IMG/VR virus record: IMGVR_UViG_2698536397_000026
Strand: one strand, 5' to 3'
From: a virus
Lineage: Duplodnaviria > Heunggongvirae > Uroviricota > Caudoviricetes
Length of the DNA stretch: 39,458 bases
The notes under the pieces were generated by a model. It saw only the letters and a program-made list of their open reading frames with translations, was not told the origin of the DNA and searched no databases. Below, one piece after another: positions 3,659 through 6,474 of this stretch (position 1 is the first letter of the stretch; the number at the start of each line of letters is the position of its first letter). A program made the position numbers and the translations under genes.

Positions 3659-4591
3659 ATGACTGATATTAACGATGTAATCAAGACCATTGATGAACTT
3701 ATTGATGGCGGCGTACTGACGCAGTATGCCATCGCCAGAGAGGCGGGAATTTCCGACGGCACATTATCGGCTTTCCGTAAGGGAAAATATAAAGGCGATA
3801 ACGCTGCTGTGGCTGCTTCCCTGCGTTCCTGGTATGAGAACTGGAATAAACAAAGCGCACTGCCGGAACCGCCGCAGTTTGTGGAAACGCAGACAGTCCA
3901 GGAGCTGCGCGCACTGTTTCAGGCGGTTCGTCTGATGGGCTGTATTAACGTTATTGTGGGCGTACCGGGTGTGGGTAAAACGGCCACTGCCCGTAATTAC
4001 TGCCAGGAGCAACCAAACACCTGGATGATCACCCTGTCACCCGCGCACTCCAGCGTCACGGAGTGTCTGCTGGAGCTGGCCGATGCGCTGGGGATTGATT
4101 ACACCCGCGCGAACAAAGGGGCATTATCCCGCGCCATCCGCCGTCGCCTGATGGGAACGCGTGGACTGGTGATTGTGGATGAGGCGGATCATCTTGGTAT
4201 TGACGGTCTGGAGCAACTCCGGGCAATTCAGGACGCCACGGGGATCGGGATGGTGCTTATTGGTAACCCGCGCGGATTGTTTAAAGGTGGACGCCGCGCC
4301 TTTGATGATTTATCGCGCCTGTTCAGCCGTCTTGCCCGTACAAAACAACTTCGCAAGGCCAAAAAGGCGGATGTGCTGGCCATTGCCAGGGCGTGGGGGA
4401 TCAGTGGTGAGGCCGAGCTGGCCGTCATGCAGGCTATCGCTGAAAAGCCGGGAGCGTTACGCGTTCTGACACATACGCTTAACCAGGCGTGGCTCACCGC
4501 CAGCGGTGAAGGCGCGGCGCTGACAGAAAAACATATTAATGCGGCCTTTAAAGAGGTTTATACCAACCCTGAATTACTCTCACAGGTGTGA
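3659..4591 (+). CDS. B: transposition ATPase / target DNA activator (MuB-like)
   Basis: 310 aa; Walker A GVPGVGKT and Walker B LVIVDEAD; directly after transposase. Confidence 0.85.
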   Translation: MTDINDVIKTIDELIDGGVLTQYAIAREAGISDGTLSAFRKGKYKGDNAAVAASLRSWYENWNKQSALPEPPQFVETQTVQELRALFQAVRLMGCINVIVGVPGVGKTATARNYCQEQPNTWMITLSPAHSSVTECLLELADALGIDYTRANKGALSRAIRRRLMGTRGLVIVDEADHLGIDGLEQLRAIQDATGIGMVLIGNPRGLFKGGRRAFDDLSRLFSRLARTKQLRKAKKADVLAIARAWGISGEAELAVMQAIAEKPGALRVLTHTLNQAWLTASGEGAALTEKHINAAFKEVYTNPELLSQV

Positions 4592-4815: not shown

Positions 4816-4827
4816 ATGAGGTGTTAT

Positions 4828-5082
4828 ATGAATATGCAATCCTGCGGTAACAAAATGAATTTATTCGACTCCCTGAACAGCGCGCGCCGTCTGACCGAAC
4901 TTGCCGGTGCGGTACTGGAACGCAGTAAGCGCTATCCGCAACGTTTTGCACTGAAAACCACGCCGCCGGTAGGCAACGTGCAGGGAACCGGTGAAATTGA
5001 AATCACCATACAGACCAACGGCCTGCGCCGCCGTGTGAAGGCCACCCGCATCAGCGGCTGCACGGTTTACTGGGAGGTGTGA
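4828..5082 (+). CDS. hypothetical early protein (about 84 aa)
   Basis: ORF with GAGGTG RBS before ATG 4828 (track start 4816). Confidence 0.5.
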   Translation: MNMQSCGNKMNLFDSLNSARRLTELAGAVLERSKRYPQRFALKTTPPVGNVQGTGEIEITIQTNGLRRRVKATRISGCTVYWEV

Positions 5083-5083
5083 G

Positions 5084-5365
5084 GTGAAAAAAAATCTCAT
5101 TGCATGGGCGTGGTCGAGTGGTCTTATTGAGTTTGGTTACGTCCTGCCGGAAGGTGCATTGCCGATAGTTGCCGGAAAGCCTGCCACGGTACGGCATGTG
5201 ATTGAGGTTATGGCGCGTCATGGACGTGATGAACAGGAGCAGTTACTGGTTCCGGGGATACCGGAAGCGGTGACGGAGGAAGAAGCCTTTAATGCCATGA
5301 TTCGGTTCTGCCGTGAGGTCAGACGCCGGGTCAGTTATCCAAACAGAACGAGGACCAGAGGATGA
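5084..5365 (+). CDS. hypothetical early protein (93 aa), GTG start
   Basis: GGGAGGTG RBS, GTG start, tight packing with neighbours. Confidence 0.5.
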   Translation: MKKNLIAWAWSSGLIEFGYVLPEGALPIVAGKPATVRHVIEVMARHGRDEQEQLLVPGIPEAVTEEEAFNAMIRFCREVRRRVSYPNRTRTRG

Positions 5366-5634
5366 GTAAAGTCGTACGCATTATTTTCGAATACAAGGAG
5401 CACGTTATCCATAAAAACGCTGATGGAACAGTGCGCATGGGGGTAAGTCTGGACATACGTTCAACCGGGATAAAGCAGAAAGGTGATGGACCCGCCATGA
5501 TTTTTGGGGTGGTTATGCTCGCGGAAAGCAGAGACTTTGCTGAACTTGTGGCAATGAAAGCCAGTGCGCTCATGAAAGATATGAGCATGCGTTCCGGGGT
5601 TATTAAAGGTAATGAATTTAATCAGCAGGGGTAA
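5362..5634 (+). CDS. hypothetical early protein, paralog 1 (90 aa)
   Basis: ATGA overlap with upstream gene; N-terminus MSKVVRIIFEYKEHVIH paralogous to next gene. Confidence 0.55.
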   Translation: MSKVVRIIFEYKEHVIHKNADGTVRMGVSLDIRSTGIKQKGDGPAMIFGVVMLAESRDFAELVAMKASALMKDMSMRSGVIKGNEFNQQG

Positions 5635-5638
5635 TTCC

Positions 5639-5932
5639 ATGAGCAAAGTACGCGTTATTTTTGAATTTAAGCATGTTTCGCATGACGAAAAACCGGCAGG
5701 CAATGACTGTGTTGAAGTGCATGAAAAGATTGGTGTGGATGTAAAAACAGAACGTGATACGAATAACAGGCCGACGTCACTCTGTGACGTTTATGCAAGT
5801 ATTCTCCAGTATCACAGTCCTGAAATTATTCAGTTTCTCTCAGCGGAATTTCAGGCATCTGTACAGGCTTTTGGGGCGGATGCCATCATTAAACGCCACC
5901 GCGTGCATAAAGCATCAGGCACACTGCAATAA
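5639..5932 (+). CDS. hypothetical early protein, paralog 2 (97 aa)
   Basis: N-terminus MSKVRVIFEFKHVSH; RBS AGGGG; start at ATG 5639 (track start 5612). Confidence 0.55.
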   Translation: MSKVRVIFEFKHVSHDEKPAGNDCVEVHEKIGVDVKTERDTNNRPTSLCDVYASILQYHSPEIIQFLSAEFQASVQAFGADAIIKRHRVHKASGTLQ

Positions 5933-5943
5933 GGAAAAACAAA

Positions 5944-6474
5944 ATGGCTAAACGTGTTACAAAATTAAAGGCCGCAGCCGAGGCTGCACCGCAGACCCGC
6001 GAAGAAGTCAGCCGCGATATCCGTACCCTGGGCGATATTCAGCGAGAGGCGCTGCGGCTGGAAACGGCGATGAATGATGAAGTGGCAGAAATCACCGCCC
6101 GTTATACGCCGCAGATTGAAAACCTTAAAAAAGAAATCAAAGTGCTTTTTAAGGGGATTCAGGACTGGTGCAAAACCAACCGCGATGAGCTGACGAACGG
6201 CGGCAAAACCAAAACAGCCAATCTGACCACCGGAACAGTGTCATGGCGGCTGGGAAATCCATCATGCAGCGTCAGCCGTGATGTGGAAGGTGTGATTGAA
6301 ATGCTGCGCCGTATGGGGCTTGAGCGATTCATCCGCACGAAAGAGGAAGTGAACAAGGAAGCGGTCCTGGCGGAGCCGGATGCAGTGAAAGGCATTGCCG
6401 GTATTAAGGTGAATAAAGGCGCTGAAAGTTTTTATGTCGAGCCTTTTGAACAGGACGCCGGACTGAATAAATAA
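5944..6474 (+). CDS. gam: Gam-like host-nuclease inhibitor (Mu Gam / Ku-like DNA end binding)
   Basis: 176 aa; MAKRVTKLKAAAEAAPQ... with TANLTTGTVSWR and FIRTKEEVNKEA segments resembling Mu Gam as I recall it; located in early region. Confidence 0.7.
   Translation: MAKRVTKLKAAAEAAPQTREEVSRDIRTLGDIQREALRLETAMNDEVAEITARYTPQIENLKKEIKVLFKGIQDWCKTNRDELTNGGKTKTANLTTGTVSWRLGNPSCSVSRDVEGVIEMLRRMGLERFIRTKEEVNKEAVLAEPDAVKGIAGIKVNKGAESFYVEPFEQDAGLNK

Follow-up and report, generated by a model that had tools for sequence, protein, structure and literature searches.

Two small early genes between kil and gam in a Mu-like prophage of Escherichia coli as probable, deeply diverged members of one family

The early region of a Mu-like prophage of Escherichia coli carries two adjacent small genes, here called ORF1 and ORF2, whose products begin with nearly the same residues and have little in common afterwards. 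This raises the question of whether the two proteins are related along their whole length, and of how they came to lie side by side. The original prediction, made from the DNA letters, took them for a paralogous pair that arose by local duplication followed by divergence, a pattern it connected with specificity-determining inhibitors of different host factors.

Genomic setting of the pair

The stretch of DNA that was analysed (39,458 nucleotides; hereafter the window) is a transposable, Mu-like E. coli prophage that encodes MuB, Kil and Gam near the pair. Its positions 5084-6474 match, at 98 % identity, a Mu-like insert that is annotated within the record of an Stx2c phage. The features of the region are as follows.

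3659-4591: MuB (PF09077)
4816..5082, + strand: Kil-like gene (phrog_2679, E=8e-46), the left landmark of the slot that holds the pair
5084..5365, + strand: orf93 (phrog_1518), the context gene upstream of ORF1
5362..5634, + strand: ORF1, open reading frame with translation, 90 aa, pI 9.45 (phrog_4107, E=1.1e-61)
5362..5412, + strand: conserved 5' module, copy 1 (ORF1 codons 1-17)
5639..5932, + strand: ORF2, 97 aa (phrog_2230, E=1.3e-40)
5639..5683, + strand: conserved 5' module, copy 2 (ORF2 codons 1-15)
5944..6474, + strand: Gam, host-nuclease inhibitor (PF07352, E=1.5e-41), the right landmark of the slot

ORF1 and ORF2 lie on the same strand with no gene between them. The ORF1 stop is separated from the ORF2 start by a gap of 4 nt, and the start-to-start spacing of 277 nt is fixed in 36 loci. 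The ATG of ORF1 overlaps the stop codon of orf93 as ATGA, and ORF1 is translationally coupled to orf93. A search of the + strand around the pair found no promoter or terminator motifs. This, together with the tight co-oriented packing, suggests that both genes are members of the early operon. The early operon of Mu extends from Pe through the semi-essential region, and the gene order around the pair agrees with that of Mu, where small proteins of about 90 aa are encoded between kil and gam.

The mechanical list of open reading frames gives ORF2 as a 106-aa product, because there is an in-frame ATG at 5612, 27 nt upstream, which overlaps the 3' end of ORF1. All ORF2 homologues and the RefSeq annotation, however, start at MSKV. 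This conservation and a GGGG ribosome-binding site favour the start at 5639 over that at 5612.

The gene upstream of the pair, orf93, is labelled ‘host nuclease inhibitor’ in PHROGs and RefSeq and is without a Pfam match. It is missing from about 10 of the 44 related loci; these retain a remnant upstream frame (MKLLHGSALSSGQTP...), which some gene callers fuse to ORF1. An orf93 homologue also lies upstream of the slot gene in another lineage (L089:2232-2504). Further to the left, between orf75 and Kil, a Mu gp8-like gene of about 139 aa is found in some close relatives (L003, L005:1095-1514, L006:1095-1514, L031 and L043). The window does not have this gene, which suggests that the early region to the left of the pair is also mosaic.

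Sequence relationships of ORF1 and ORF2

BLASTP aligns residues 1-17 of ORF1 with residues 1-15 of ORF2 only (12/17 identical, E=9e-4 as a single comparison). The corresponding DNA (5362-5412 against 5639-5683) is identical at 36 of 45 aligned nucleotides, with two 3-nt indels of one codon each, and its 19-nt core, GTACGCRTTATTTTYGAAT, has exactly two copies in the 39.5 kb of the window, where 0.03 would be expected; two matches were not reached in any of 100 shuffles. This short imperfect repeat was caught by a pattern search and missed by a repeat finder. Past residue 17, a global alignment of the two proteins has 5 identities in 73 positions (about 7 %). The original observation of near-identical N-termini followed by divergence is thus literally correct, and the pairwise alignment, which had been proposed as a check, limits the similarity to the first residues.

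The HMM match of ORF2 to phrog_2230 is full length, and ORF2 has homologues in other phage lineages with which it shares 26-30 % identity. An exhaustive profile search with the ORF2 family over 1.84 billion representatives returned 11 matches only, among them proteins of 93-98 aa starting with MSNKAQVIFTFE or a close variant; the close relatives of ORF2 with named sources come from Salmonella. A further type, gp7b (MAKVIFEFNN..., 89 aa), was uncovered in Mu-type phages via loci fetched through Gam. By hhalign, ORF2 matches the Salmonella type at 99.3 % and gp7b at 96.7 %, and the Salmonella type matches gp7b at 98.3 %. The family is colinear, with the signature VIFEF ... GP.DV.A.I....P.II ... 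E ... G, and its named members come from E. coli, Salmonella, Yersinia or Cronobacter only. Judged by these alignments, ORF2 can firmly be placed as a robust member of a small enterobacterial family.

An AF2 model of ORF2, built from the family alignment, is confident (pLDDT 84.8, pTM 0.70) and consists of a long beta-hairpin (residues 4-21 and 24-39) packed on two helices (48-58 and 60-77). A BFVD search with this model gave nothing at E<=0.001 and retrieved no Mu protein. Every match in a Foldseek search of the PDB had E>1, PDB sequence profiles gave nothing at E<0.02, and there was no match in Pfam or NCBIfam for either ORF1 or ORF2.

ORF1 also has a full-length HMM match, to phrog_4107. 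Its 41 homologues are all from E. coli and are at least 73 % identical, and this ‘extra’ cassette is found in E. coli Mu-like prophages only. When the ORF1 family is compared by hhalign with the ORF2 family alone, the match (82 %) covers the first 34 columns only. Against a 66-sequence ORF2/gp7-like family, where gp7 is the protein of this slot in Mu, it reaches 93 % probability (E=2.8e-7) over 76 colinear columns, and against the Salmonella type, gp7b and gp7, with ORF2 excluded, it reaches 85.5 % over 70 columns. With the N-terminal 17 residues removed, the score is 20.5 (P=0.0011) in the same register, and none of 200 column shuffles of this comparison (mean 10.0, maximum 19.8) reached that value. 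The helical part alone gives a weak result (P=0.021), which counts against paralogy. A further point against it is that ORF1 is basic (net charge +2.7), whereas ORF2, gp7, gp7b and the Salmonella type have a pI of 5.1-6.6. The basic charge could reflect a different partner or, as a speculation, pairing with ORF2.

Structure prediction, which had also been proposed as a check, was less successful for ORF1 than for ORF2. The ORF1 model, made from its own shallow alignment, is poor (pLDDT 54.7), with a hairpin (4-18/24-38) and a helix (57-73), but this low-confidence model and the confident ORF2 model have the same order of elements. Taken together, the profile comparisons support distant homology over the full length, so that the term ‘paralogous pair’ is probably right, even though the pairwise similarity ends at residue 17. 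We think it likely that ORF1 is a true full-length homologue of the ORF2 family, of which it would be a very distant member.

Copy number, cassette exchange and loss of ORF1

A search for the same pair, or for single-copy versions of it, in related prophages found the pair in 44 of 46 window-type loci. Of 5426 complete E. coli genomes, 228 carry ORF1, at 271 places, and 232 carry ORF2, at 274 places, suggesting that the pair is retained together at about 99 % of places. Every other lineage examined (Mu-type, Salmonella, L089 and L090) has a single copy, X, and the layout of the slot is Kil-X-DUF3164 in Salmonella, orf93-X-DUF3164 in L089 and Kil-X-Gam in L090. The tandem state is therefore, among the lineages examined, specific to the window-type E. 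coli lineage, and ORF2 is the counterpart in this lineage of the single slot gene in other Mu-like phages. Neither gene turned up when one genome per species was scanned with the two alignments, and a tblastn search of GenBank phages was positive for the pair in just two Mu-like inserts, both lying in Stx phages. The DUF3164 protein (212 aa) that follows the slot gene in L087-L089:2803-3441 lies at the place that Gam has in the window; the L087 and L088 Mu-like prophages are from Salmonella assemblies.

Median dN/dS in the related loci is 0.28 for ORF1 and 0.37 for ORF2, which shows that both are real genes under purifying selection. Within ORF2 there are two allele classes, a (VEVHEKIGVDVK...) and b (QEITEGVTATVK...; for example L015:2696-2989), with about 60 % protein identity; class b is found with at least 80 % query coverage in 32 of the 5426 complete E. 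coli genomes. The alleles of the two genes are found in every combination, the two ORF2 classes combining freely with the ORF1 alleles.

The beginning of each gene behaves differently from the rest. Of 45 loci, 44 have the same first 30 nt of ORF2, and third-position diversity in the first 10 codons of this gene is 0.00, against 0.17 for the whole gene (P=0.0005). For ORF1 the corresponding values are 0.03 and 0.12 (P=0.046), the locus filter having partly pre-selected these codons. When the window is compared with L015, an island at 5354-5384 is 100 % identical and the ORF1 body 77-90 %, and a second island at 5594-5654 is 97-100 % identical and the ORF2 body 50-83 %.

There are two independent single-copy derivatives without ORF1, STEC299 and L026, and their junctions differ but both lie inside the 5' module. 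In STEC299, ATGAGTAAAATC of the ORF1 type is joined at GTACGC to ORF2 sequence, a 274-nt deletion that gives a protein starting MSKIVRVIFEF. In L026, an upstream region of the ORF1 type is joined at ATGAG to an ORF2 b-allele. Folding of the RNA at both starts was considered and rejected, as the starts fold no better than shuffled sequences (z +0.5 and +1.2). The near-invariance of the module, the positions of the junctions and the lack of structured RNA at the starts suggest that the module is constrained at the nucleotide level, or is a crossover site, or both. From the junction positions we infer recombination at the 5' module; the island could equally reflect constraint at the level of the protein or of translation.

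Two further rearrangements of the pair were seen. A database protein, P0036, is a fusion of the form ORF1(1-49)::ORF2(80-97), which fits a deletion between two TTTTGGGG microhomologies (window 5502-5509 and 5869-5876) and is a third, independent collapse of the pair. In E. coli 23CRST049 (L004:628-2963), ISEc22, of the IS66 family, is inserted at the 3' end of ORF1, where it replaces the last nine residues of the protein and leaves ORF2 intact.

The same slot shows exchange in Mu-type phages, which have either gp7 or gp7b, one of them, between gp6 and gp8. In an alignment of Mu with L072 the flanks are mostly 97-100 % identical, and the similarity is lost some 26 nt past the start of the gene and returns directly behind its stop codon. 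The near-identical flanks and swapped gene bodies suggest that gp7 and gp7b are alternative cassettes of one slot.

Mosaic temperate phages have conserved junction (‘linker’) sequences at module boundaries, as in the modular-exchange model for lambdoid phages. Like those linkers, the short near-invariant DNA islands described here flank divergent cassette bodies and coincide with the breakpoints of replacements and deletions. In contrast with the lambdoid linkers, which lie between genes, the island in the window is inside the coding sequence, in the first 10 or so codons.

Origin of the pair and its relation to Mu gp7/E6

A likeness confined to the start of two proteins may be due to chance or to a shared initiation context, for example an MSK/AAA-rich start, and the original prediction had itself named this as the alternative to paralogy. 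Starts of the M-[AS]-K type are common (Gam begins MAK too), and neither initiation region is structured, as one would expect if initiation is efficient. However, identity at 12 of 17 residues and 36 of 45 nucleotides, the double occurrence of the 19-nt core and the profile match argue otherwise, the likeness reaches codon 17, well past the initiation context, and the VIFEF-type strand characterizes the family as a whole. On this sequence evidence the reading is hardly credible and effectively refuted. A recent local tandem duplication of ORF2, in which one copy diverged very fast while selection kept its N-terminus, would agree with the adjacency, common orientation, similar length and 277-nt period of the genes, and the ORF1 N-terminus is nearest to that of ORF2 among the subfamilies, including the lineage-specific S2, R and HV.H residues. 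Only these first 17 residues of ORF1, however, have ORF2 as their closest relative. The two copies are not each other's closest relatives, since ORF2 is nearer to the Salmonella and gp7b types (26-30 %) than to the body of ORF1 (about 7 %). Both genes are now under purifying selection, haplotypes that differ by dS values of up to 0.5-1.2 still carry the pair, and no intermediate or recently duplicated state was found in the 46 window-type loci or at about 270 genomic places. Local duplication then divergence is thus a poor description, and by these comparisons the pair is not a recent duplication, an origin that we consider decidedly unlikely.

The main rival to full-length homology of ORF1 is that ORF1 is a chimera, an unrelated small gene fused to the slot's 5' module of about 17 codons, so that the pair would share nothing but a recombination or initiation linker. 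The abrupt end of pairwise similarity at residue 17 would be explained in this way, as would the alignment of ORF1 with the ORF2 family alone over columns 1-34 only and a charge opposite to that of the family. Additionally, the 5' codons shared by Mu and L072 belong to the conserved flank while the rest of the gene is swapped, which suggests that 5' identity can pass separately from the gene body. Set against this are the colinear match of ORF1 to the family after removal of the N-terminus, which no shuffle equalled, the match that persists when ORF2 is excluded, and the agreement of the two proteins in length and in the order of predicted secondary structure. We regard such a chimera as possible, if rather doubtful.

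The explanation that on balance we favour is that ORF1 and ORF2 belong, as deeply diverged members, to a single small family of proteins of about 87-98 aa, and that in the Mu-like transposable phages of enterobacteria this family occupies a hypervariable accessory slot of the early operon. This slot lies between kil or orf93 and gam or DUF3164, and in Mu it is that of E6/gp7. A second, already divergent cassette would have been added by recombination at the conserved 5' module, with no recent duplication of ORF2.

Mu gp7/E6 (NP_050611.1, Mup07) is orf63, which was named gnarl2 by Silas and co-workers (Nat Commun 2025; PMC12373910). Expression of Gnarl2 causes a downshift of the O-antigen ladder in ECOR1 and ECOR22 and increases T5 infection 10^5-6-fold; its effects on O-antigen are strain-specific, and the phenotype was described for Mup07 only (PMC12373910). 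Like the products of the pair, Mu gp7 is a small (87 aa) early-operon protein of a Mu-type transposable phage, encoded between kil and gam. It has a similar length and a similar N-terminal strand motif (MAKVIIEIK in Mu gp7, MSKVRVIFEFK in the window), and it is replaced at the same slot by gp7b, the robust ORF2 homologue. There are also differences. Mu carries a single copy, with gp8 and gp9 after it, and the window carries two copies and lacks gp8 and gp9; for ORF1 and ORF2 the equivalence of the slot is by synteny in a different phage backbone.

At the level of sequence, Mu gp7 matches phrog_2230 weakly (E=0.009 over 78 residues). A comparison by hhalign of ORF2, the Salmonella type and gp7b with the gp7 subfamily is also weak (32 % probability, E=4.8e-4, 71 colinear columns), and for its C-terminal part alone the observed score was equalled or exceeded by 7 of 200 shuffles. 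ORF1 compared directly with gp7 gives 0.1 %. ORF1 and ORF2 are already catalogued in phrog_4107 and phrog_2230, which carry the label ‘unknown function’, and in RefSeq as hypothetical proteins. PHROGs treat these two families as unrelated and tie neither to phrog_10252, the family of Mu gp7, or to gnarl2. We propose a relation between ORF1, ORF2 and gp7 on the basis of profile-profile comparison and synteny.

Since the Mu occupant of the slot is Gnarl2, it is plausible by analogy that ORF1 and ORF2 are specificity-determining inhibitors of host factors, as originally predicted; a Gnarl2-like function is something that we infer from this analogy only. The products would be small non-enzymatic binders, made of a beta-hairpin and two helices and produced during lytic development. 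By analogy with Gnarl2, each of the two proteins may, with a specificity of its own, perturb host envelope (O-antigen/LPS) biosynthesis or some other host factor. In a more detailed form of this model, which we consider unlikely as a whole, the pair would be a two-specificity module of Gnarl2-like inhibitors of O-antigen/LPS biosynthesis. The shared N-terminal beta-strand would dock or dimerize, basic ORF1 might pair with acidic ORF2, the divergent hairpin tip and helices would set the target, and the invariant 30-nt module would also be a recombination linker by which Mu-like phages swap, add or drop cassettes in one step. No link was visible between ORF2 allele class a or b and host O-serotype, as read from the strain names of the carrier genomes, since both classes are present in O157:H7 hosts. 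This is a point against a simple serotype-matched model.

The proteins themselves are already catalogued in PHROGs; the analysis adds a link between ORF1 and ORF2, their connection with the slot of Mu E6/Gnarl2 and the description of a conserved 5' module. New mechanisms of host manipulation are currently coming to light among phage accessory genes that are small and evolve fast; Gnarl2 (Mu E6) belongs to these and has a clear phenotype. Should ORF1, ORF2, gp7b and the Salmonella type share one exchangeable slot family, they would constitute a natural allelic series, in which one lineage retains both copies at about 99 % of places. Such a series could serve to find what Gnarl2-type proteins act on and which of their parts determine specificity. 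With a different function, the pair would still be an ordinary example of a hypervariable accessory slot. The 5' module provides a concrete case of cassette exchange, gain or loss inside a coding sequence.
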